In this document: positions 1 to 18,917 of the stretch, piece after piece | How the letters are laid out: every line of letters begins with the position of its first letter | Numbering within the stretch: the first letter of the stretch is position 1 | Assembly: GCA_048884785.1 (NCBI GenBank) | Contig: JBHLQM010000021.1 | Location: 1-47,081, forward strand | Direction: 5' to 3' | Length of the DNA: 47,081 bases | Source: Candidatus Thorarchaeota archaeon | GTDB lineage: Archaea; Asgardarchaeota; Thorarchaeia; Thorarchaeales; Thorarchaeaceae | Position numbers and translations under genes: made by a program | The notes under the pieces: model-generated | What the model was told of the DNA's origin: nothing | Seen by the model: the letters and a program-made list of their open reading frames with translations, nothing else | Database searches by the model: none

Positions 1-99
1 CTTCGCTAACCCTCCTCCAAGCCCTAGTACGCTTTAGATACAACGGTGGATGACCTCGCGTCATTGTTCCTCGAATTCCTTCCTCGAAACCCACATCTT
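1..99 (-). repeat. Most diverged displaced copy of the actin 3' end (R3), with partial terminator; truncated by the window edge
   Basis: 34-99 on the minus strand reads [20 protein letters not shown]-stop, versus actin [21 protein letters not shown]-stop. There are 13 nt differences in 66, with 9 codons changed synonymously. CTAGTACGC motif at 24-32. Confidence 0.92.
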
Positions 100-155
100 A
101 CGTCGTTGCATATACTTTTCTTATTCATTCCAAGGCGGGCTCTGAAGATAGATTA

Positions 156-1985
156 TTGAAGGGATTGATAGTGAAAGAGTATTCAACGGTTGTAAAATGT
201 CTTCGAGCAAAGATGGAGAGGTGGACTGAATCAGGTCCTGCAACAGGTGCAGCTTTCTCTGTAGTTGCAACAGATGGCCCAATATTCTCAGAAGGTTATG
301 GCTACAGAAACCTTGCTAAGTCTGCAAAGGTCGATAGGGAAACCATCTTTCAAATTGGGTCCACCACAAAAATATTCACGGGACTTGCATTCATGCTTGC
401 TGTTCAGGACGACCTAGTGGCTCTAGATGATAGGCTTGTGGATCATTGGCCTGAGTTCACAATACATAGTCGATATGGGGAGGCTGAATTTCGTAAGATT
501 ACATTCAGGCATCTTCTATCACACCGCTCAGGACTCCCTCGAGATCCGAGAGTAGGAGGTATCTTTGGTTGTCATAAGAAGTACACATTCGAAGAAATGG
601 TAGAGAGCCTTAAGGACTGTTGGATGGTTGCTCCAGTTAACGATAGGTACTATTATTCCAATGTCGGTATGGATACAGTGGCTTACGCACTACAGAAGAT
701 AACTGGAATGAAATATCCAGAATGGGTCAAACAGAAGCTGGGTAGACCTTTAGCGATGTCAACTCTTAGATATGGAGGTGCTGAGGCACTCCAAGAAGAC
801 AATGTTGCCATTGGAAGTGAAGACGGAGTTCATGAAATCACATTTGCTTCATCAGAAGATTATGGTTGTGGTGACGTCTGGATTGGGAATATTGACCTTG
901 CAAAGGCATTGAACCTACTTTTGAACGAAGGTTCCTATGAAGGAGAGGAAATACTTGAGAAACAGCTATTTCGTGAGATCACTAGGCCTCACTTTGCGAG
1001 AGAAAAAGGACACCAGTATGGTCTTGGTGTAGATATAATGAATGGGTTTACTCCTATGATTCTAAGTCATGGGGGAGGGTCACTTGGTTATGCATGCAGC
1101 CTTTACTGGATTCCAAAGTATGGCTTCGGAGTCTGTGTCCAAACAAACTGGGAATCGCTTGGTGGCAAGAAGAATCCCCATACTCTGGCTACAGATGCCC
1201 GTGAGGATTTACTAGGAGTGCATGGTGCCTCATTGGCTAGGCCGATTCCTGATGGATTTCTTGCTGAAGATGTTGTGAGGCCAGCTGTTACAGATCCTTC
1301 TAATCTTGTTGGTTTCTATGCAGGTCTCTGGAATGCATCTGTCATAGTTTCATTTCGGGAAGGTAGATTGTATTGGCATGATAGATGGGAGATGACAGCA
1401 AAGGGGAACGGATACATTCTCCCATCAGGAAATGCAGTTCGATTCAATTTCAAATCAAAGAAATCGAGGACCCCCTATTATCTTACTTACGTGAATCCGC
1501 GTTATCCAGTAGCCATGTTGAATATGTACCGCGTGAAACCTGTTGAACCTCCTTCCCAGCTACAGTTTATCGATGAGAGTACCTCAGAGCAATTGACTGG
1601 AATCTACAAGGCAATATATTATGGAGGCGAGTTTACTTTCAACTTAGCTCTTGTCAAAGAAGGACAGCTCTTCATCCAAACAGACTACGGACTAAGACCC
1701 GTCTACCCTCATGAGTCTAAAGAAGGACTCTTCTTTTTAGGGTACGGGGAAACGGTGCTCTTTGAAGGTGATGAGTTGAGTGTGGGGAATGTACGAGGTG
1801 TGAAGTGGCTGAATCCAGTCGAAGAGTTGGATGACCTTGCAAAGAATAACACAAATCATAGACTCTTGGTCAAGTGGCGACTTGACCAGGTTGCTTCACA
1901 CTTGAAGACTCTAGGAAGAACTAATGAAGCAAAGGAGGTCCTCAAAATCAAGAAGGAGCTCTATCCGCCAAAGAAGAAGAGATAA
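156..1985 (+). CDS. Serine hydrolase, beta-lactamase class C/PBP-like family, with C-terminal extension (cassette gene)
   Basis: SxxK (GSTTK), LLSHRSGL, YxN (YYYSN) and HGG motifs; no obvious signal peptide; the start may be GTG at 171. Confidence 0.88.
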   Translation: MKGLIVKEYSTVVKCLRAKMERWTESGPATGAAFSVVATDGPIFSEGYGYRNLAKSAKVDRETIFQIGSTTKIFTGLAFMLAVQDDLVALDDRLVDHWPEFTIHSRYGEAEFRKITFRHLLSHRSGLPRDPRVGGIFGCHKKYTFEEMVESLKDCWMVAPVNDRYYYSNVGMDTVAYALQKITGMKYPEWVKQKLGRPLAMSTLRYGGAEALQEDNVAIGSEDGVHEITFASSEDYGCGDVWIGNIDLAKALNLLLNEGSYEGEEILEKQLFREITRPHFAREKGHQYGLGVDIMNGFTPMILSHGGGSLGYACSLYWIPKYGFGVCVQTNWESLGGKKNPHTLATDAREDLLGVHGASLARPIPDGFLAEDVVRPAVTDPSNLVGFYAGLWNASVIVSFREGRLYWHDRWEMTAKGNGYILPSGNAVRFNFKSKKSRTPYYLTYVNPRYPVAMLNMYRVKPVEPPSQLQFIDESTSEQLTGIYKAIYYGGEFTFNLALVKEGQLFIQTDYGLRPVYPHESKEGLFFLGYGETVLFEGDELSVGNVRGVKWLNPVEELDDLAKNNTNHRLLVKWRLDQVASHLKTLGRTNEAKEVLKIKKELYPPKKKR

Positions 1986-2020
1986 CCTAATGCTTTTGAG
2001 ATGATTTGGTCAGGATTGGC

Positions 2021-2137
2021 AAAAGGGAGAGAAAGAAGGGAGCCTTGCTGGCTCGCCTTCGTTTACTAGTACGCTTTAGATGCAGCGGTGGATGACCTCG
2101 GGGCCTTGCTCTTCAAACTCCTTGCGTGAGACCCACA
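2021..2137 (-). repeat. Displaced copy of the actin 3' end plus terminator (R2)
   Basis: 2076-2137 matches actin 4514-4575 with 2 synonymous changes. CTAGTACGC at 2066-2074, hairpin at 2035-2060, AAAAGGGAGAG tract at 2021. Confidence 0.97.
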
Positions 2138-2168
2138 AACTCGATTTCGAGCAATTTGACATAGATTA

Positions 2169-2369
2169 TCAATCAGCTGAAGTGGATTCTTGTTCAATTC
2201 GCATGAAAAGAATCCCTGTAAGAAAGGCAATTGCTCCAAACGGAAAAATGACGAAGGGGAGGTGAGCAAAAATCCAAGGATCAATATCATAAAATGGGTT
2301 ATGAAGCTGCAAGAGTAAAGCCAAGAATATGACAAACGCACCACCCATCGCTAGGTGCTTGCCGGTCAT
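2169..2369 (-). CDS. Small two-TM membrane protein (cassette gene)
   Basis: 66 aa with two hydrophobic segments; GGAGGT Shine-Dalgarno just upstream of the ATG. Confidence 0.6.
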   Translation of the reverse strand: MTGKHLAMGGAFVIFLALLLQLHNPFYDIDPWIFAHLPFVIFPFGAIAFLTGILFMRIEQESTSAD

Positions 2370-2539
2370 TTAGAAACCTCCGATTCCTCTAATATCATCG
2401 TTTTCACATAATCATACTGGTGCAAACAATATAGCTCCCATTTTTCGTATCCAAGGTAGGACCACCATTCTTTGGATATCAATACGCACTCAATCCAGCG
2501 AAAGAAAAGAAATAGGATTGAATCAAGATGTGTTCTCAT
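2366..2539 (-). CDS. Possible 57-aa peptide (MRTHLDSILFLFFRWIECV...EESEVSK)
   Basis: Translated manually; below the ORF-track cutoff. Its stop overlaps the start of the 66-aa ORF (ATGA). Confidence 0.3.
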   Translation of the reverse strand: MRTHLDSILFLFFRWIECVLISKEWWSYLGYEKWELYCLHQYDYVKTMILEESEVSK

Positions 2540-2563
2540 AAGAAGAGATGATTGAAATGCCTC

Positions 2564-2676
2564 AAAGGGAGAGATAGAAGGAGAACTCTGCTAGTCCTCC
2601 TTCGTTTGCTAGTACGCTTAGATACAGCGGTGGATGACTTCGGGGCCTTGCTCTTCAAACTCCTCGCGTGAGACCC
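2564..2676 (-). repeat. Displaced copy of the actin 3' end plus terminator (R1)
   Basis: 2618-2676 matches actin 4514-4572 with one change (AAG to GAG, K to E). CTAGTACGC at 2609-2617, hairpin at 2577-2603, AAAGGGAGAG tract at 2564. Confidence 0.97.
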
Positions 2677-2736
2677 GAGGTAAATCGACAACTATTTGTT
2701 TGATATGGGTTCCTCTCAAGAATAAGGGGATTAGAA

Positions 2737-4452
2737 ATGGGAGTTAGATTACTATCTAAATGGGTGGTATGGTCTGGGACTAAACAAAATGAAAGCCTGA
2801 ATTTCTCAGCTGAATCTGACACACAATATGCAGTTCATATTCTTGGCTTTGCTCAGAGAGCATTCTCTGGTAATTATACAATTCTTGTGAATGATAAGAA
2901 GATAACCACTTCAAAGGTGTCCGGTAATTTTGTAGATACAATCAGCATAGGACATCTTGAAGCTGGAAAGGGGTATAAGCTAACAACAGAATTAGAATCT
3001 AAGAAAGGTGAATGGCAAGTCACACTTTATCTTACAGACAGATTCCCTAACGGAAATGTGCCTAGCAGGGCATCTAAAGAAAGAGATCCTCTTCGTCTAA
3101 TTAGTCTAGTTGCTCAATTGAAGAGAGATCGAAGACTTCACGAAGCAAAATATCTTCTTCAAATAATGAGGAAGAAAGCACCTACTAACAATATGATAGC
3201 GCAAGCTTTAGATGAATTGAAGGATGTTGACATATCATTTCAAGAACATTCACCAGAACCAGAGTATGAGGGGATATTTGACCCGAGATTGCTAATCGCA
3301 GCAGGAGATAATTTCCATCGGGAAGGAAACTACTCTGCGGCAGAATTTGCATATAAACAAGCATTGGAGAGAGATCCTTCTAATGCAACAGTCTGGGTTA
3401 ATCTAGGTGTAGCACTTGCTAGACAAGGACGCCCAAAAGAAGCGGAAAATGCATACCGTACAGCAACTGAACTGGATTCTAAGTATCTTCTTGCGTTCAA
3501 TAATCTTGGTGCAATCCTAATAGAGCAAGAGAGATTTGAAGAAGCTATTATTCCAATAGAACATGCAATTTCTCTCGATAAGAATAATCATATTTTATGG
3601 CATAGTCTAGGAATGGCATTCTTCCATCTCAAAAGACACTCTGATGCAAAGGAGGCGTTTGAGAAAGCTTTGATAATCGATCCAAGAAGTGTTCCAACTT
3701 TGATTTCACTTAGTCTGGTCTTCAGAGAGTTAAAGGAATTCAAAAGAGAAAATGAAGTGTTGCAACAAGCAGTTGCATTAGATCCAACACTGATTCAGAA
3801 ACTCAAACTTGGTGCATTGGAATTGGATGATAAGTTGGTAGAACTTAAGGAGATGTTTGCAAAGAGTCAAGAATTGATATCTCTGAAGGAATTCGATAAG
3901 GCATTTGATATTCTAGTTAAAGCAACCAAGAAATTCCCTGAATCTGGCGACATACTTGGAAATATAAAGAATATACTTCCACAGACTAGGCTGAAAGAGT
4001 TCACATACAATTGTCCTACTTGCAATTTCACTAGCAAAGTTCAGCTTCAGCCATCACTTGGTCCAGATGTTGCAATTCTTCAAATTGGAATACATGCCAA
4101 GATGTTTGCAGAAGTTCCAGATAGTATTAAACAGGTTACATGTGGTGCATGTAAAACTCCTGGAGGAGTTACAATTTCACTATGTTTGGATTGCTTTGAT
4201 GGGTTTAAGGGAGTGCTTCATGAACAAACAAGTCGAAAAAATTACTCCTACAACTGTGATAAATGCAATAAACCACTGACAACTAGGGCTGAGAAATCTG
4301 AAACACAATTGAAGCAATTTGAAGAATTGAGAAGAAGAGCTGAGGTAGTCAGCATTGCTATTCAGCGGGTTGATTCTATATTTCCTAAATTCCAATATGA
4401 GAGAGTGCCAATATCAAATCAATCCTATTCATTGTTGAAAGAAAAGAAATGA
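2737..4452 (+). CDS. TPR-repeat protein with N-terminal beta-rich domain and C-terminal Zn-ribbon region (cassette gene)
   Basis: Several TPR motifs (e.g. AEFAYKQALERDPSNATVWVNLGVALARQGRPKEAENAY) and four CxxC motifs (CPTC, CGAC, CLDC, CDKC); visibly more AT-rich than actin. Confidence 0.85.
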   Translation: MGVRLLSKWVVWSGTKQNESLNFSAESDTQYAVHILGFAQRAFSGNYTILVNDKKITTSKVSGNFVDTISIGHLEAGKGYKLTTELESKKGEWQVTLYLTDRFPNGNVPSRASKERDPLRLISLVAQLKRDRRLHEAKYLLQIMRKKAPTNNMIAQALDELKDVDISFQEHSPEPEYEGIFDPRLLIAAGDNFHREGNYSAAEFAYKQALERDPSNATVWVNLGVALARQGRPKEAENAYRTATELDSKYLLAFNNLGAILIEQERFEEAIIPIEHAISLDKNNHILWHSLGMAFFHLKRHSDAKEAFEKALIIDPRSVPTLISLSLVFRELKEFKRENEVLQQAVALDPTLIQKLKLGALELDDKLVELKEMFAKSQELISLKEFDKAFDILVKATKKFPESGDILGNIKNILPQTRLKEFTYNCPTCNFTSKVQLQPSLGPDVAILQIGIHAKMFAEVPDSIKQVTCGACKTPGGVTISLCLDCFDGFKGVLHEQTSRKNYSYNCDKCNKPLTTRAEKSETQLKQFEELRRRAEVVSIAIQRVDSIFPKFQYERVPISNQSYSLLKEKK

Positions 4453-4457
4453 TTTAG

Positions 4458-4513
4458 AAAAGGGAGAGAAATGAAGGAGGGGAACGCTCCCACTCCTTCA
4501 GATACTAGTACGC
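4458..4513 (-). terminator. Actin 3' UTR: GCGTACTAG motif, hairpin and pyrimidine tract
   Basis: Inverted repeat TGAAGGAG-GGGA-acgc-TCCC-a-CTCCTTCA (4472-4500), followed on the minus strand by TTTCTCTCCCTTTT. Confidence 0.75.
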
Positions 4514-5653
4514 TTAGATACAGCGGTGGATGACTTCGGGGCCTTGCTCTTCAAACTCCTTGCGTGAGACCCACATCTTCTGGAACGTCTTTAGCGAAGC
4601 AAGAATGCTTCCGCCAATCCAGACAGAGTATTGTCTCTCTGGAGGAGCGATGATTCGGACCTCGATGTTCTCTGGGACTAGCTCGGTGATCTCCTTGTGG
4701 AGCCTCTCCTTGAGTCCTGGGAACATGGTTGAACCGCCTGACAGGACAACGTTAGCGTATAGGTCACGTCGTAGGTCAACGTCACAAGCCTTGATGGACT
4801 CGACAATGTGCTCATCGAGTGGCATTGTGTCTAGGCCAATTGCACTTGGGTTGAAGAACAGCTCAGGTGCTTGGAAGCGCTCTGCACCGACTGTGATCAC
4901 CTCACCGTCTGGCAGCATGTAAGGCTTGTCAACACCAGCCTTGTCTGCAACGGTCCTCTCCCTCTCGGGGTCAAGGGCTACGTAGCAGAGTTTCTCCTTG
5001 ATGTCACGGACAATCTCCTTCTCTGCGCCGCTCACGAATGAGTAGCCTCTCTGTCTGAGAAGTCTGCGCAGATACTCGGTGATGTCACGTCCTGCAAGGT
5101 CAATTCTTCGAATGGCATGGTTGATTGAGAAGCCCTCGTACACAGGGACAATGTGGGTGACACCATCGCCAGAGTCAATAACTAGACCGGTCGTCCTACC
5201 TGATGCGTACAGTGATAGCACAGCCTGAGTCGCAACATATACAGCGGGAACGCCGAAGTTGTCGAACATCACGGATGCCATGCGTTCTCTGTTCTCTCTC
5301 GGGTTGAAGGGTGCTTCAGTGAGCAACACTGGGTTCTCACTTGGGTCGATCTTCAAGTCGTTATAGAATGTGTAGCTCCATATCTTCTCGATTGCGTCCC
5401 AGTCCTCTACAACACCGTGTGTGATTGGATACACCAAGCGTAGTACACCACGGAGGTTGATGGCCTCTTCTCCGATGTAGTAATCGCGAGTATAGTGGTC
5501 AACGTCTGTCATGATACTCTCATATCGGGGATAACCGATGAGAGTGGGCCAGACGCTTCGGGGCTGATCTTCGCCGGCATATCCGTTCTTGCTAAGGCCA
5601 GTGCCATTGTCGATGACAACTGGCTTTGTTCCAAGAAACTCGTCTTCAGCCAT
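4514..5653 (-). CDS. Asgard actin (eukaryote-like actin)
   Basis: [68 protein letters not shown] and [12 protein letters not shown] motifs; ends in HRCI. Likely start is MAEDEF at 5653. Confidence 0.98.
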
Positions 5654-5744
5654 TTTGATTCGGTCCTCTTTCAATGAATTATACAGAGAGTCTCGCGAGA
5701 AATGAATCTTCCAAAACTCTATGCTGACAATAAGTCCTGTTATT

Positions 5745-5765
5745 TGCTATTTAAGCGTTTATCGG
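5745..5765 (-). promoter_or_regulatory. Probable BRE/TATA promoter of actin
   Basis: Minus strand reads GATAAACG-CTTAAATA about 95 nt upstream of the ATG. Confidence 0.5.
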
Positions 5766-5987
5766 ATTTCGTCAATTAAATCAAACGAATATATTATATA
5801 TGTATATCATGTGGTTTAATTATGCAATAGGCTGTATGTGCCGAAAACAGGGTTTTGAACCCATTTTCGTTATTTCTGGAAGATTTTTCTATATCGGACA
5901 GTGGTGAATTTCGGACAAAAAAAGGGACAAGAAAGGATATCTACAAAGCATATATATATCATATATATATTAAATGAAGTGAGTACT

Positions 5988-6818
5988 ATGTTATACGAAT
6001 CGGCTGATGATATTGTCAAGAGAGAGATTGAGAGTGTGCGAGCCAGACGGATCATCTTGGACCAGCTTGAAGGAGGACCAAAGACAGGTACAGAACTCAG
6101 AGAGAGTATCAGGAAAGATATGGCTCTAACGCTCATAGATCAGAAGGGAAAGAAGACGGCCAAGGAGAAGAAGGTAGTAGTCACCGATCCCAAGCTCTAT
6201 CATAACACGTCGCATCTGGAATCACTTGGAATTATCAACAGCAGAAGAGAATCAAGGGAGAGAGTCTTCGAGCTCAGTCTGAGGGCGTATCATCCTGTAA
6301 GGCGCGCGCTTAAGGAAGTGGGTCTCATGGAAGTGAATAGACCAGTTGCATATGTCGCCTCCGTCAGACAACCAGACGACCAGAGACCGTTTGCAATCTG
6401 GCTACGTCGGGGAAAGCAGTTCAAGCCAAAGAAGCTTTTACTCTTCACTGAGAGCCGTGTCTGGAAACGTCAGACCCTGAGAAGTCTCGATCGATTCATG
6501 ACTGGCGAGTCCCGAGGGATGATGGACACAGAAACTGAATGGTATGACATTCCCGTAGAAATAACAAGTGATTCGGAGGACCTCCAACGTGGGAACCTTG
6601 AGGCGGTCTACAGTTTCATTCGGAATGAGGTTGTCAAAGTAATACCCACACACGAATTAGTTGTGGATTTATCAATGGGAACTCCACTCACAATTCTCGC
6701 ACTTGTTCGGTTGGCTGAAGAGTACTCTCTACGAGCCATTCACGTTGAGAGCTATGAGGATGAGAAGGGCAGGATCATCCAGTACTATCCACGAGGGAGT
6801 AGTAGTGAATCTTGGTGA
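5988..6818 (+). CDS. Winged-HTH regulator fused to a C-terminal CARF-like (Rossmann) domain
   Basis: N-terminal ArsR-like wHTH (ILDQLEGGPKTGTELR...LYHNTSHLESLGII); C-terminal LVVDLSMGTPLTILAL resembles the CARF D(I/L)(T/S)GG motif. Likely start is ATG 5988. Confidence 0.65.
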   Translation: MLYESADDIVKREIESVRARRIILDQLEGGPKTGTELRESIRKDMALTLIDQKGKKTAKEKKVVVTDPKLYHNTSHLESLGIINSRRESRERVFELSLRAYHPVRRALKEVGLMEVNRPVAYVASVRQPDDQRPFAIWLRRGKQFKPKKLLLFTESRVWKRQTLRSLDRFMTGESRGMMDTETEWYDIPVEITSDSEDLQRGNLEAVYSFIRNEVVKVIPTHELVVDLSMGTPLTILALVRLAEEYSLRAIHVESYEDEKGRIIQYYPRGSSSESW

Positions 6819-7497
6819 GTCAGGGCTACCTTGGCAGCGGATAGACGTCATGGGAAATTTACATAGAATCAGAACTGCCATTTCAGAAGACCTTGCATTG
6901 GTTCCGTCTATTAACACAAGGACAATAAGAAAGTTGAAGCGCTGGTTGGATGACTTGGATTATATCATGGATTGCGTAAAGTCAGCGGAGAACGATGTTT
7001 CTCCTAAACTTAGGCGTCTTCTGGGTTTGGACCTGAATGGCAATGGGCATCTTACAGTGCTACTCTTTCAACCCAGCACAAAGAACCTCTTTCTTGAGAT
7101 TCACACTCACTACTGCCAGAGGAAGAACTCCCATGTTGACTGTGGTGCATTAGATGATCTTGCATCTCTAAGTGAGATGAGTAAAATGCTGGCATTAATT
7201 GGCGATGCGGTGATCGATATGGCTATCCTTCATCACATTTGGACTCCAAAAATTGTGGGCGTGGGCACACTAACACAGGACAGGGCGGACCTTGTGAGTA
7301 ATGAGCACCTCGCAACTATATGCGACCAATGGGGACTCTATGATGCACGAATTCATTTTGACCCTCGAACTTCAACGAAGGCTGAGATAGAACATGACAA
7401 GGGAACCCTAGTTGAAGCGCTCTATGGAGCTATCTATATTGAAAAGGGTTTCAAGAAAGTACGCGAGCTGGTTGTACATCTTTTGAAGAGCAAGTGA
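6805..7497 (+). CDS. Ribonuclease III-domain protein (Mini-III-like, no dsRBD)
   Basis: LALIGDAVID, VSNEHLA and GTLVEALYGAIYIE motifs. Probable GTG start at 6805 after GAGGGAG, overlapping the upstream gene. Confidence 0.8.
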   Translation: MNLGESGLPWQRIDVMGNLHRIRTAISEDLALVPSINTRTIRKLKRWLDDLDYIMDCVKSAENDVSPKLRRLLGLDLNGNGHLTVLLFQPSTKNLFLEIHTHYCQRKNSHVDCGALDDLASLSEMSKMLALIGDAVIDMAILHHIWTPKIVGVGTLTQDRADLVSNEHLATICDQWGLYDARIHFDPRTSTKAEIEHDKGTLVEALYGAIYIEKGFKKVRELVVHLLKSK

Positions 7498-9006
7498 TCA
7501 ATACTCAGCAAAATCGTATTCATCCTCTCTATATGATTTGGGCTCTCTAGAGGGAAACAATTTCTCAAACTTTTTCCTAACAACGTCCCCGTTCTTTATG
7601 TCCGAATAGACTCTCACAGACGGAATTGTTCTGCTCTGTTGTCGTAGTGCTTTGCTTAAGGGGCCACCTTCTTCGGTTTCATCAAGCCTGACGAGATCAA
7701 AACCAGAATCACCTCCTATGAGTATAGGGATGTTTTTGACAAAGTCTTCACCTAATGGCGGCAGTACGACATCTATAATCACATTGCCGGGTGTTTCCAA
7801 CACTTCAAGTTCAGATTCAAGAAGGGCTTCAATGTCTTCAGTCATGTTCCGAAATCGAAGCTGGTCCTCTTGATTAAATGACGCGATTGGTTTTGAAACG
7901 ATGACCTTGAACAGCCTACGGTATCTTATTCTGGCAGCATACTCTCTGACAAAGGGTATCTCAGATTCGCCAAGCCACCGATAAAGATCAGCATCTGTCA
8001 TTCGTGTGAACAGGCCAATGCATTCACTCTTTGACAGATCTTCCTCTTTCATTCTGAAATACGAGGCCTTTGAAGTGAGAGCTTCGGCAACTCTAACTGC
8101 GTGATGAAGGTAGAGGTCAGCGAACATCCAAGACCTACTAAGAATCAGTGCTTCCAGAGAATGAATTGCCTTAATCATGAATGCGCGATGATATTGTCCC
8201 TTGTCATCACGAACGACTCTATTTGTCAGAAGAACACGCTCTGCTGGAAAAATACCCAACTCCACACCACTAAAATGGGCATCTCGAATCAGGTAGTCAG
8301 TCTTATCAATATCAAGTGGACTATCAACAAAATCCGATAGCAACTTCATCACAGGGTCAGATGATCTTCGTTTCAGTACATCAACGACGGAAGCAGGATC
8401 AATCCCATTCTCTTTCAATGTGTCAGCAAGCTTGCTGTGGAGAATCAAGAACATACCCAAATCAGTATGAGTAAGGCCTGCCCAACTCTCCAACGCAAAC
8501 TCAATGGTATGCGATGTGGGAGGATGTCCGACATCATGTAAGAGGGCCACGGCTCTAAACAACTTCTGATACTCCGCATCCAGTAACTGGGATAGGGGAA
8601 TAAAATGGGGACGATTCATGTCATCGCAGTAGTTGACCACTCGAATGCATTTCTGGGCAAGAAAATTGGTACCAATACAGTGTTCAAACCGAGTATGTGT
8701 TGCTCCTGGATAGACAATATGAGCTGGGCCAAGCTGCTTGACATATCTCAGTCGAAGCATCTCCCAACCTGAGATGATATCAAGCTCCCAAGGTTCCAGC
8801 AGGATGGCCCCGTGAACAGGATCCTGTATTGCCTTTTGCCGTGTATGACGTTCTCCAAGCGCCAAAATCCGATTGTGCTCGTCCAACATTCCAGAGATTT
8901 CAGACCAGTTATTGGCCTTTGCTTCACGGGATTCTCGTATGATATCTTCTCGTAGCCCTGTCAGTCGAATGAGGTTCACAATCTCAATATCAAGTTCCGG
9001 ATGCAT
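7498..9006 (-). CDS. HD-superfamily phosphohydrolase (SAMHD1/COG1078 dNTPase-like)
   Basis: DPVHG, RLRYVKQLG, YPGATHTRFEH, LLHDVGHPPTSH and DIDKTDYLIRD motifs. Confidence 0.92.
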   Translation of the reverse strand: MHPELDIEIVNLIRLTGLREDIIRESREAKANNWSEISGMLDEHNRILALGERHTRQKAIQDPVHGAILLEPWELDIISGWEMLRLRYVKQLGPAHIVYPGATHTRFEHCIGTNFLAQKCIRVVNYCDDMNRPHFIPLSQLLDAEYQKLFRAVALLHDVGHPPTSHTIEFALESWAGLTHTDLGMFLILHSKLADTLKENGIDPASVVDVLKRRSSDPVMKLLSDFVDSPLDIDKTDYLIRDAHFSGVELGIFPAERVLLTNRVVRDDKGQYHRAFMIKAIHSLEALILSRSWMFADLYLHHAVRVAEALTSKASYFRMKEEDLSKSECIGLFTRMTDADLYRWLGESEIPFVREYAARIRYRRLFKVIVSKPIASFNQEDQLRFRNMTEDIEALLESELEVLETPGNVIIDVVLPPLGEDFVKNIPILIGGDSGFDLVRLDETEEGGPLSKALRQQSRTIPSVRVYSDIKNGDVVRKKFEKLFPSREPKSYREDEYDFAEY

Positions 9007-9070
9007 GTAATGCCCACCAAGCACAAGAAAGAGTATCTCCTATTAAAAGTGTGATAAGAGGACTAGAATC

Positions 9071-13695: not shown

Positions 13696-14239
13696 GGTCG
13701 GTTTTCTGCAAGAATTTAATATCCTCGTGGGTTGTCCCCGTGAGAGAGAACAGGCAGCGAAATCTGAAGTTCGCTATTTCATTGGAGATCTCATTGGAGA
13801 TGATGAACTGAGAGTCCATAGCACAAGTGTGATTGGACTTATCACTTGCATGACGGCTTTGAACCCATTCGATGTAATCAAGAAGCTCAAAGAATTCGCG
13901 GATGAAAACCCCTACCAATTCAGGTATGCAATAAAATTCACTCCTCTGGAGCTTTGTGTTAAATCGAATATTGAAAGTATCGTTAAGGCGACAGAAACGC
14001 TAATTTCAAAGATTGAAGAAGATGAAACATTTAGAGTCACAGTTCGTCGAAGACACACAAACCTAGAAAATATGGAAGTCGTGGAGGCAGTTGCGGGGGT
14101 CATTTCACGCAAAGTGAATCTCGAAAATCCCGACAAGACCGTCTGGGTTGAAATTGTTGGCGAGCTAACAGGTATTTCAGTATTGAATCCTGAAGTGGAT
14201 ATTCTATCAATCATGACACTGCGAGATGACATCTATTGA
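13682..14239 (+). CDS. THUMP-domain protein
   Basis: TFRVTVRRRHT and KVNLENPDKTVWVEIVG motifs. Confidence 0.9.
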   Translation: MLKCEVGFLQEFNILVGCPREREQAAKSEVRYFIGDLIGDDELRVHSTSVIGLITCMTALNPFDVIKKLKEFADENPYQFRYAIKFTPLELCVKSNIESIVKATETLISKIEEDETFRVTVRRRHTNLENMEVVEAVAGVISRKVNLENPDKTVWVEIVGELTGISVLNPEVDILSIMTLRDDIY

Positions 14240-17375: not shown

Positions 17376-18917
17376 TTATTCCTCAAGAAGAACACCAACC
17401 ACATTTGTAGCGTGCTCTAGGATGGAACCAGCCCTCATCATTTCCCTAACTGCCTTAATATCCCTATAAAATGCCCGATCTTCTTCAAGTGTTGGAATAG
17501 AACTTCTAATCAATTTGCGAACATTTTCTAATGGTTCGGAGGGTTTTAGTGGAGAGAGCAGATCAACACCTTGAGTTGCACAGAGGTATTCAACTGCAAT
17601 CACATTCGATACATTCTCAAGTATCTTCCAAGCCTTGCGTGCTGCAATTGTGCCCATACTAACATGGTCTTCTTGATCCGCACTTGTGGGAATAGAATCA
17701 ACACTTGCGGGATGCGCCAGTACTTTGTTCTCTGATACAAGTGAAGCAGCAGTATACTGAAGAAGCATCATCCCTGAATTCAATCCGCCGCTTTTGGTCA
17801 GGAATCCAGGAAGACCGCTTAGGTCCGGATTCTGAAGCCTATTGATGCGGCGCTCCGAGATGTTAGCTATCTCAGATAAGGCAATGCCTAGGAAGTCCAT
17901 CGCCAATGCAATTGGCTGGCCATGGAAATTGCCTCCAGATAGAACTGAGTCACTCTGTGGAAAGACCAGCGGATTATCAGTTGCAGAGTTGATTTCGGTT
18001 TCAATTATACTGCGAACATACCGAATTGTATCAAGAGAGGCTCCCAAAACTTGGGGAATGCACCTGAGGGAATATGCATCTTGAACCTTCCCGCACTTGG
18101 CGTGGGATTGATTAATTTCGCTATCTGGGAGTAATCTTCGCATTAGCTCTGCGACATGTACCTGCCCCTCATGAGGACGAACCTCATGTATCCTTGAATC
18201 GAATGCCACTCTAGTCCCGCGAAGTGCTTCAAGACTCATTGCTGCTGCGATAGCTGCTTCCTGAAGTACCAGAAATGCATCATGTACCACAAGTGCTGCA
18301 ATGGAAGTCATTGGTTGCGTGCCATTGATAAGAGCAACTCCTTCTTTTGCCTGAAGAGCAATAGGTGATATTCCGGCCTTCTTTAGGGCTTTTGGACCGT
18401 CGATTCGTCCCCCATTGAAAAATGCCTCACCCTCACCAATCATCACAAGAACCATATGTGCCAATGGTGCAAGGTCTCCACTTGAGCCAACGGAACCCTG
18501 TTCGGGCACAACAGGAACAACGTCCTTGTTCAACATTGCGAGTAGGGTTTCGACAACTTCCACTCTTGTGCCTGAGTAGCCTTTAGCAAGTGCATTGGCT
18601 CTAAGTAACATCATACCTCGGACTACTTCCTTTGGTAGAGGATCGCCAACACCAACACTGTGACTTCTTATCAGATTCACCTGAAGCGTAGCCAGATCAT
18701 TCTCATTGATGGACACATCTGCAAGATCGCCAAATCCAGTATTTACGCCATAGACTGTTCGTTTCTCCTTCAAAGCACGTTCAATTACAGCACGACTTTC
18801 TAGCATTTTCTTCCGAGCCATGTCATCTAGGACAATCTTTGACTTGTGCCGTGCAACACTAACCACATCTTCTATTGTTAGGCTCTCACCATCAATTGAA
18901 ACAACCACGAATATCAC
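17376..18917 (-). CDS. hutH: Histidine ammonia-lyase
   Basis: YGVNTGFG, GSVGSSGDLAPLAH, QDAYSLRC, SGGNFHG and QEDHVSMG motifs. Confidence 0.96.
   Translation of the reverse strand: MIFVVVSIDGESLTIEDVVSVARHKSKIVLDDMARKKMLESRAVIERALKEKRTVYGVNTGFGDLADVSINENDLATLQVNLIRSHSVGVGDPLPKEVVRGMMLLRANALAKGYSGTRVEVVETLLAMLNKDVVPVVPEQGSVGSSGDLAPLAHMVLVMIGEGEAFFNGGRIDGPKALKKAGISPIALQAKEGVALINGTQPMTSIAALVVHDAFLVLQEAAIAAAMSLEALRGTRVAFDSRIHEVRPHEGQVHVAELMRRLLPDSEINQSHAKCGKVQDAYSLRCIPQVLGASLDTIRYVRSIIETEINSATDNPLVFPQSDSVLSGGNFHGQPIALAMDFLGIALSEIANISERRINRLQNPDLSGLPGFLTKSGGLNSGMMLLQYTAASLVSENKVLAHPASVDSIPTSADQEDHVSMGTIAARKAWKILENVSNVIAVEYLCATQGVDLLSPLKPSEPLENVRKLIRSSIPTLEEDRAFYRDIKAVREMMRAGSILEHATNVVGVLLEE

Follow-up and report, generated by a model that had tools for sequence, protein, structure and literature searches.

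Gene cassettes stacked between copies of the actin 3' end in a Thorarchaeota genome

Introduction

Why does the 3' end of a single actin gene occur four times at the edge of a Thorarchaeota contig, with unrelated genes between the copies? The stretch analysed here (the window) is the first 47 kb (47,081 nt) of contig C21 of G000, a Thorarchaeota metagenome-assembled genome (MAG) of 3.6 Mb in 158 contigs that is 91% complete. Actin has orthologues in 126 of the 151 Asgard genomes that we sampled. A first reading of the window's letters, referred to below as the original prediction, had proposed that repeated insertion at the actin 3' end built a variable, non-autonomous and integron-like cassette array served by a recombinase acting in trans. 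By comparing the array with its counterparts in related genomes, we find that the last codons of actin, together with the terminator, have been replaced and displaced many times, and that the newest unit adjoins actin. We put at about even odds (roughly 0.5) the reading that each event was a break-and-repair replacement of the actin tail that brought cargo with it, as in the WHO elements of yeasts.

Architecture of the array

A repeat search recovered the four actin-end copies of the window as direct repeats on the actin strand with 82-88% identity, and BLAST of these copies against the whole 3.6-Mb genome (E values of 1e-13 to 1e-33) added two further matches, both on contig C140. The original prediction had placed all four copies correctly, and also the three unrelated cassettes between them (TPR/Zn-ribbon protein, small membrane protein, serine hydrolase). 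Each repeat unit consists of 48-72 nt of actin coding sequence (CDS), the stop codon with a short conserved motif, a GAAGG..CCTTC hairpin with a conserved outer and a variable inner stem, and a T/C tract, past which sequence similarity between the units stops sharply (Table 1). The tail copies in G000 are 12-25% diverged from one another. Cassettes are packed tightly, the stop codon of cassette 1 abutting the T-tract of working tail a1, and their orientation is mixed: the TPR and hydrolase genes converge with actin, whereas the small open reading frame (ORF) and the oligopeptidase gene described below are co-oriented with it.

The window begins inside the fourth copy because the assembly broke there. 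The final 77 nt of C140 are identical to window positions 1-77, so that the array extends into this contig, which contributes a cassette with a 701-aa prolyl oligopeptidase gene and a fifth tail copy; beyond these lie a GNAT gene, a 102-aa ORF and a TetR gene. The first 77 nt of C140 in turn overlap C47 (the second 77-nt overlap), which adds a metallo-beta-lactamase-fold gene, a 190-aa gene and one further ORF. In the joined C21/C140/C47 sequence, a 160-aa gene is reached at position 14070, and between it and actin lie five tail copies and at least six cargo units with about 10.5 kb of cargo. Extension to the left of the window, which the original prediction had suggested as a way to count further copies and look for a recombinase, yielded more copies but no recombinase. 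About 20 exact 77-nt repeats at 177-nt spacing also occur in G000 (C107, C12, C14-C19 and others); they are probably assembler artefacts (k=77). On the other side of actin, and divergent from it, a 305-aa gene without a Pfam match, an RNase III-domain gene and an HD-domain hydrolase gene occupy window positions 5901-9024.

Displaced tails are former actin ends

Comparing 25 displaced tails, each with its own genome's native tail, we counted 106 synonymous, 50 non-synonymous and 3 stop-codon differences, and many of the 50 fall at the non-homologous left edge of the tails. One displaced copy in G013 carries 14 synonymous changes and a single non-synonymous change in 22 codons; tail a4 of G000 differs from the native tail by 9 synonymous changes, 1 non-synonymous change and 1 stop difference. 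Because the differences are mostly synonymous, they did not arise by decay after duplication, and each tail evolved as a working actin end in some lineage. The displaced tails therefore formerly functioned as ends of actin and were replaced and displaced, which supports the proposal that insertion restores the gene and moves the old end downstream.

Tail and gene body have discordant histories, the tails recombining independently of the body. Between G003 and G006, the bodies differ by 2.7% and the tails at 11/66 nt (P=1e-6), nearly all of them third codon positions. Between G024 and G098, body difference is 2.6% and the tails differ at 12/66 nt (P=1e-7); here the changes form a patch that extends from ~25 nt upstream of a site that we call K|MW (see below) to 51 nt downstream of it, and the terminators are identical. 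The reverse pattern was seen for G023 and G085, with a body difference of 6.9% and none of 66 tail positions changed (P=9e-3). Allele types also cross genomes: a4 of G000 resembles the native tail of G005, and a displaced tail of G005 is of the native G000 type.

New units enter next to actin

The tail is matched in 77 of the 87 Thorarchaeales genomes, and about 30 of these carry two to five nearby copies with cargo that differs from genome to genome. On its upstream side (an HD hydrolase gene, an RNase III gene and a 280-aa gene), actin has syntenic neighbours in all relatives, the block at window positions 5901-9024 included, while the downstream side is variable. Such variation, seen between related genomes and between strains alike, is what the original prediction of a variable, non-autonomous array implied. 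The 160-aa gene lies directly after the native terminator in G008 and after the last tail copy in G004 and G002. This makes it the ancestral neighbour of actin, and all the sequence that separates the two was inserted. A cassette of family fam38 occupies slot 1 in G076 but slot 2 in G057, where a nitroreductase gene holds slot 1, and in G056, where another gene does; both of its junctions are conserved. In G072 there is no cassette, and the usual neighbour of the genus directly follows actin. From the shifts of fam38 and the cassette-free locus it follows that new units enter next to actin, the newest unit adjoining the gene.

Cassettes are gained or lost at strain level, with a breakpoint inside the repeat. 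Contigs of an independent sample from the same study (run X2) tile window positions 1-9000. A contig of run X10, which comes from another study, links window position 2097 to 4536, with 40 nt common to both sides; the joint skips 2438 nt, exactly the TPR and small-ORF cassettes, so that actin is followed directly by cassette 3 and copy a3 is the working end of actin in that strain. Runs X6 and X10 gave no cover at window positions 2101-4500, and of what these runs gave we counted the X10 joint alone as evidence. In X6, a 70-nt unlike loose end at 4458, present in a single contig, hints at a different neighbour. Among the contigs (rather than raw reads) placed on the window, no joint that "goes back" was found.

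Tail a4 and the 102-aa/TetR region of G000 have 96-97% identical counterparts on a 3410-bp contig binned with another genome (G071:C267, locus L134), which carries a different 581-aa gene in place of the oligopeptidase gene, tail a5 and GNAT gene of G000. A 25-nt remnant behind the GNAT gene of G000, consisting of the hairpin 3' arm and T tract, marks the cut point of an older tail copy. The bin of L134 belongs to another genus (g6), and the contig is probably a mis-binned close relative of G000.

The G000 tail core, used as an exact pattern, had no match in metagenome and genome collections. A hairpin-pattern scan returned only relatives that were already known, a single metagenome contig (L099; 1.5 kb, two tails) and chance bacterial matches. 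The degenerate tail pattern had one chance match among viral contigs, in an AT-rich phage, and no viral or plasmid contig or other episome with a lone actin tail was found. Twenty Asgard genomes from 12 other families were searched over the 20 kb 3' of actin with seed 10-11 and length of at least 36-40; no tail repeats were detected, although diverged short copies could escape such a search.

The K|MW site, the mini-intron and the hairpin

The K|MW site, the junction of Lys with Met-Trp, lies 66 nt before the end of the stop codon. Each displaced tail was aligned against 240 nt of its own actin gene, and in 27 of 27 tails the left edge falls 19-73 nt from the stop end, with clusters at 44-52 and 55-66 nt and no edge further upstream. 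Exactly at K|MW, five genomes of five genera (G006, G013, G050, G020 and G018) carry a 30-nt in-frame insert that ends in a stop codon; the actin gene of G000 is without it. In the predicted fold, a 4-bp helix and a 3-nt bulge precede a 9-bp stem whose loop has 5 nt; the 4-bp partner strand and another 3-nt bulge follow. Both helices show compensatory changes, such as CCAG/CTGG in three genomes versus TCAA/TTGA in G006, and predicted cuts past the second base of each bulge restore the FQKMW codons in all five. The insert is a mini-intron of the bulge-helix-bulge (tRNA) type, and it sits at the upper bound of the left edges of displaced tails. Intron insertion sites classically coincide with the sites of homing endonucleases.

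The hairpin belongs to the travelling unit. Of 46 native and displaced terminators, which have many different inner stems, 44 form a stable hairpin (mean folding free energy, dG, of -17.5 kcal/mol; mean z of -4.3 against shuffles). The a1 hairpin reaches a dG of -19 kcal/mol and a z of -5.5, and the a2 hairpin a z of -4.2. In array context, the motif is confined in G000 to the actin-locus contigs C21 and C140. The terminators were folded one by one, since indels had misaligned their stems in a MAFFT alignment of all 46 and RNAalifold predicted no structure from it.

Cargo and enzymes

The cargo units of the G000 array are mutually unrelated (TPR/Zn-ribbon, 66-aa membrane ORF, hydrolase, prolyl oligopeptidase, GNAT). 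In 40 relatives we found no close orthologue of the hydrolase or TPR genes; the best matches, at other loci, reach 33-36% identity (33% for the hydrolase). Arrays of relatives carry HepT/MNT and DUF433 toxin-antitoxin (TA) modules, LRR, transglutaminase-like, ABC ATPase, HTH, metallo-beta-lactamase, nitroreductase and methyltransferase genes, and a gene for a deaminase-TPR protein. We detected no recombinase, transposase or nuclease family among the cassettes, and the family-less ORFs in the first slot have no match in Pfam, NCBIfam or PHROGs. One of these first-slot ORFs, fam55, resembles a glycosylated membrane protein when judged by eye. One cassette inside an array, at L130 (6831-7952; G046:C366), is itself a second actin-like gene with 42% identity to actin; it shares the conserved tail and terminator of the main actin gene, and its end may have been converted by the same process.

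Neither the tyrosine recombinase family PF00589 nor the serine recombinase family PF00239 has a match in G000. PF00589 occurs in 29 of the 87 Thorarchaeales genomes and in none of the remaining 58, but never beside an array: the nearest, in G009, is 12 kb off on the array contig with no tail copy adjoining it. No unit of the ~40 arrays from these 87 genomes contains a tyrosine recombinase. In some relatives, tyrosine recombinases lie on short, poorly assembled contigs that are perhaps mobile elements. Eleven integrase genes examined in relatives are flanked by neither att-like repeats nor tRNAs. Ten free-standing LAGLIDADG loci lie in small-ORF regions, often at contig ends, with no actin tail nearby. 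We found no reverse transcriptase in G000 and no TnpB above the cut-off, and a route through cDNA therefore loses support. No XerA-like tyrosine recombinase was found among the 87 Thorarchaeales genomes, while most other sampled Asgard families have a ~300-aa match at E~1e-40.

Other hotspots in the same genome

Self-comparison of G000 revealed the cassette arrangement at several further places (Table 1); actin is the recurring site. The tRNA-Ala 3' halves are spaced by 0.8-4.3 kb of cargo (TPR proteins, FMN reductase) and have a constant left edge in the anticodon loop; they look like classical att-type arrays, but an integrase was not found in G000. Hotspot cargo comprises TPR, GNAT and NosD-like genes and no recombinase, and the cargo proteins of different G000 hotspots are not paralogous at E<1e-5. 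The uL2-tail duplication is private to G000 among 41 genomes, its relatives having a single uL2 tail each.

Table 1. Positions of the parts of the actin array, of the mini-introns and of other hotspots. Coordinates without a contig or locus name refer to the window.
Feature	Position	Strand	Description
Actin gene	4514..5674	-	386 aa; Pfam Actin E=8e-134; stop codon 4514-4516; target with replaced tail
Working tail a1	4458..4579	-	last 66 nt of CDS, short conserved motif, hairpin 4473-4499, T/C tract 4458-4472
Cassette 1	2737..4452	+	571-aa protein with TPR (Pfam TPR families) and C-terminal Zn-ribbon; convergent with actin
Displaced tail a2	2564..2676	-	~59-63 nt of CDS, hairpin and T-tract; left edge 59 nt from stop end
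Cassette 2	2169..2369	-	66-aa hydrophobic two-helix membrane ORF; no family match
Displaced tail a3	2021..2137	-	62-66 nt of CDS; conserved part with synonymous changes only
Cassette 3	156..1985	+	609-aa beta-lactamase-family serine hydrolase (PF00144 E=2e-47); convergent with actin
Displaced tail a4	1..99	-	cut by contig edge; continues in C140 (= L060 3930-4047)
Mini-intron	L040 ~1886-1915		30 nt
Mini-intron	L033 ~17786-17815	-	30 nt
Mini-intron	L135		30 nt
Mini-intron	L024		30 nt
Mini-intron	L025		30 nt
tRNA-Ala(GGC) 3' halves	C9 34-84, 1165-1217, 5485-5536		three copies
tRNA-Ala(GGC) 3' halves	C99 47-99, 843-895		two copies
tRNA-Ala(CGC) 3' halves	C29 23273-23317, 24812-24856		
16S rRNA 3' flank	C72 98-232, 839-962, 4850-4906		three copies
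Ribosomal protein uL2	C149 131-206, 3032-3103		coding end and hairpin; two copies
Gene end and hairpin	C116 259-364, 3969-4073, 5019-5087		three copies
Copies behind 354-aa gene	C67 12587-12669, 14716-14798		two copies

Discussion

How could such a stack arise? In the reading that we favour at about even odds, the last ~22 codons of actin and the terminator hairpin would act as a replaceable tail. A break at or near K|MW, probably a site-specific cut, would start each event, and homologous recombination would repair it with foreign DNA of another Thorarchaeota lineage as template. The donor would carry its own synonymously recoded tail followed by cargo, with left homology provided by the actin body and right homology by an older tail or terminator copy. 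The incoming tail would then become the working end of actin, while the old tail, trimmed to 19-73 nt, would move downstream along with all earlier cargo; repetition would stack the units with the newest adjoining actin, and later recombination between tails could delete or swap cassettes. Ragged left edges with an upper bound, together with the recoded patches, fit break-induced gene conversion better than a fixed-site recombinase. We favour tail replacement because the WHO system at yeast FBA1 shares its demonstrated features (PMC7282813). By analogy with WHO and other free-standing homing-endonuclease elements, we infer that the cut would be made by a putative site-specific nuclease.

Several observations weigh against tail replacement by such a nuclease. 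None is encoded in the arrays, whose cargo consists of ordinary accessory genes (TA, GNAT, TetR, hydrolases, nitroreductase, methyltransferase) and not of endonuclease genes or pseudogenes. In G000, the families LAGLIDADG_1, _2 and _3 and HNH have no match, and the sole GIY-YIG match is a 604-aa frame at another locus. LAGLIDADG_3 matches in the order are inteins or free-standing genes elsewhere with no actin tail near, and a profile of the LAGLIDADG proteins of the order had no match in the six-frame translation of the ~40 arrays. The two clusters of left edges could be two fixed crossover sites of a recombinase. Moreover, the classical-looking tRNA-Ala 3'-half arrays occur in the same genome, and in other organisms tRNA 3'-half arrays are made by tyrosine integrases. 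Since the assembly is a MAG, extrachromosomal elements that encode the enzyme may have gone unbinned.

In a rival reading, which is in essence the model of the original prediction, a tyrosine or other integrase would act in trans on a specific site: the attP of integrase-less or decayed units would carry the actin tail, and tandem integration at actin would shift older units outward, as in tRNA-anchored tycheposon islands. Those islands do show partial target copies between cargo, with new units pushing old ones outward (bioRxiv 10.1101/2020.12.28.424599), and the constant left edge of the tRNA-Ala arrays, the two classes of actin-tail left edges and the recombinases that some relatives have on short, possibly mobile contigs all point the same way. 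We nevertheless regard it as doubtful: PF00589 is absent from our searches of G000 and of the array-bearing genomes G003, G005, G014, G056, G057, G069, G076, G085 and G098, the 11 integrase genes of relatives lack att-like repeats or tRNAs beside them, and no viral or plasmid contig carries a lone tail. A single fixed crossover point fits neither G024/G098, where a recoded patch is followed by an identical terminator, nor the GNAT unit, whose boundary lies inside the hairpin. The recombinase in trans of the original prediction accordingly lost ground, given that neither PF00589 nor PF00239 was found in G000 and that PF00589 never lies beside an array. Its integron-like attachment site fared no better, as there are no attC-type boxes, orientation is mixed and the left edges are ragged with a hard upper bound. 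A classical integron, or a cluster of attC sites lacking integron-integrases (CALIN), in which IntI captures cassettes at attC sites, is highly improbable here, even though the mostly single-gene cassettes are tightly packed between hairpin-forming repeats, TA modules and GNATs are typical integron cargo, and archaeal CALINs have been published (PMC9668308) and are reported to be enriched in Asgard MAGs. G000 has no intI or PF00589 match, and the cassette borders have no R''(RYYYAAC)/R'(GTTRRRY) pair (a regular-expression search of the 10.8-kb array gave 1 site elsewhere, against 2.5 expected from shuffles). Cassettes point both ways, and every repeat is the coding end of actin with preserved codons, unlike attC.

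Units might also accumulate with no dedicated enzyme at all, if DNA taken up from diverged relatives recombined by homology anchored in the most conserved genes, the other end being joined illegitimately or in an older tail copy; spontaneous breaks at the highly transcribed hairpin terminator may initiate such events. Every hotspot found in G000 sits at the 3' end of an extremely conserved gene (actin, uL2, 16S flank, tRNA-Ala), no enzyme was found in our searches, the left edges are ragged with one junction within the hairpin, the cargo sits tight against the terminator like a natural neighbour, and one exchange resembles a double crossover between flanking tails. However, random illegitimate joints should at times lie further upstream, whereas 27 of 27 end at about K|MW or below, and K|MW coincides with the intron insertion point. 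Actin is used far more than the equally conserved uL2, and the strong recoding right at K|MW suggests selection on sequence, which makes an enzyme-free origin rather improbable. An assembly artefact, or local tandem duplication followed by decay, has next to no likelihood. The window does start within a repeat, and three contigs are joined by 77-nt overlaps, but the copies are too diverged for assembler collapse or duplication and the cargo units are unrelated. Their mostly synonymous differences are beyond the reach of decay after duplication. Dozens of independent assemblies, those of ~30 related species among them, share the architecture with contigs of another sample, and the X2 contigs tile the stretch.

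A full-text literature search on Asgard and Thorarchaeota returned no description of actin-anchored arrays. Taken together, the observations suggest a wider proposal that is tentative and, taken whole, unlikely: Thorarchaeota would capture genes without an integrase or, in this order, a recognisable homing endonuclease. A site 22 codons before the actin end would be repeatedly opened and repaired with a foreign recoded tail and cargo. Terminators of conserved genes (actin, tRNA-Ala, 16S flank, uL2) would serve as accretion points, and the 30-nt intron would be the scar of a cutting element or an immunity device. If such integrase-independent capture is true, its driver would be an undescribed enzyme, possibly one of the family-less first-slot ORFs, or a host pathway. 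The usual mobile-element enzymes were not found in the arrays or in G000, and the overlap of the site with a tRNA-type intron in an mRNA offers a testable hypothesis on why actin has this intron. The accessory genome accretes at the end of actin, the signature eukaryote-like gene of the lineage, by a process that is active at strain level, and the way in which Asgard archaea acquire foreign genes matters for models of eukaryogenesis. The stacks record gene acquisitions in chronological order and offer natural "landing pad" sequences, and the actin 3' end is a poor phylogenetic marker in this group.

Comparison with known systems

Actin arrays share with integrons and CALINs the compact cassettes, hairpin-forming repeats, proximal insertion, and TA and GNAT cargo. 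Unlike them, they are without IntI, attI/attC structure and uniform orientation, and their repeats are the coding end of a host gene. The attC-type CALINs reported from Asgard MAGs (Ghaly et al. 2022, PMC9668308) are different in structure from the actin arrays. In the tycheposon islands of Prochlorococcus, likewise, tandem integrations at a conserved target leave partial target copies between units, new units push older ones outward and adaptive cargo varies by strain (bioRxiv 10.1101/2020.12.28.424599). Their target is a tRNA and their tyrosine recombinase is borne by the element, whereas actin arrays have a protein-coding target, no such enzyme that we found, ragged edges and gene-conversion patches.

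Free-standing mobile endonuclease ORFs of fungal mitochondria bring a new C-terminus for the host gene and displace the old one downstream. They are single insertions with an endonuclease gene, and we know of no multi-cassette cargo stacks described for them. The closest published parallel is a eukaryotic selfish element (WHO/HO): WHO elements of Torulaspora and Lachancea yeasts home into the aldolase gene FBA1 (Coughlan et al. 2020, eLife, PMC7282813). As at actin, WHO clusters lie downstream of a highly expressed conserved gene, their content is polymorphic within species and the newest unit is nearest the gene. The duplicated fragments there, too, comprise the host gene's 3' end only and start near one position, and alleles differ far more in their working 3' end than elsewhere in the gene. 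A WHO unit encodes its own endonuclease gene or pseudogene (an intein-zinc-finger fusion), whereas we found none in the actin arrays, which carry diverse accessory cargo. The actin tails measure 19-73 nt against ~400 bp for WHO fragments, the archaeal host is without meiosis, and cleavage at the actin site is our inference. An archaeal counterpart of WHO would extend homing by replacement of a host-gene end to prokaryotes and link it to the capture of cargo.

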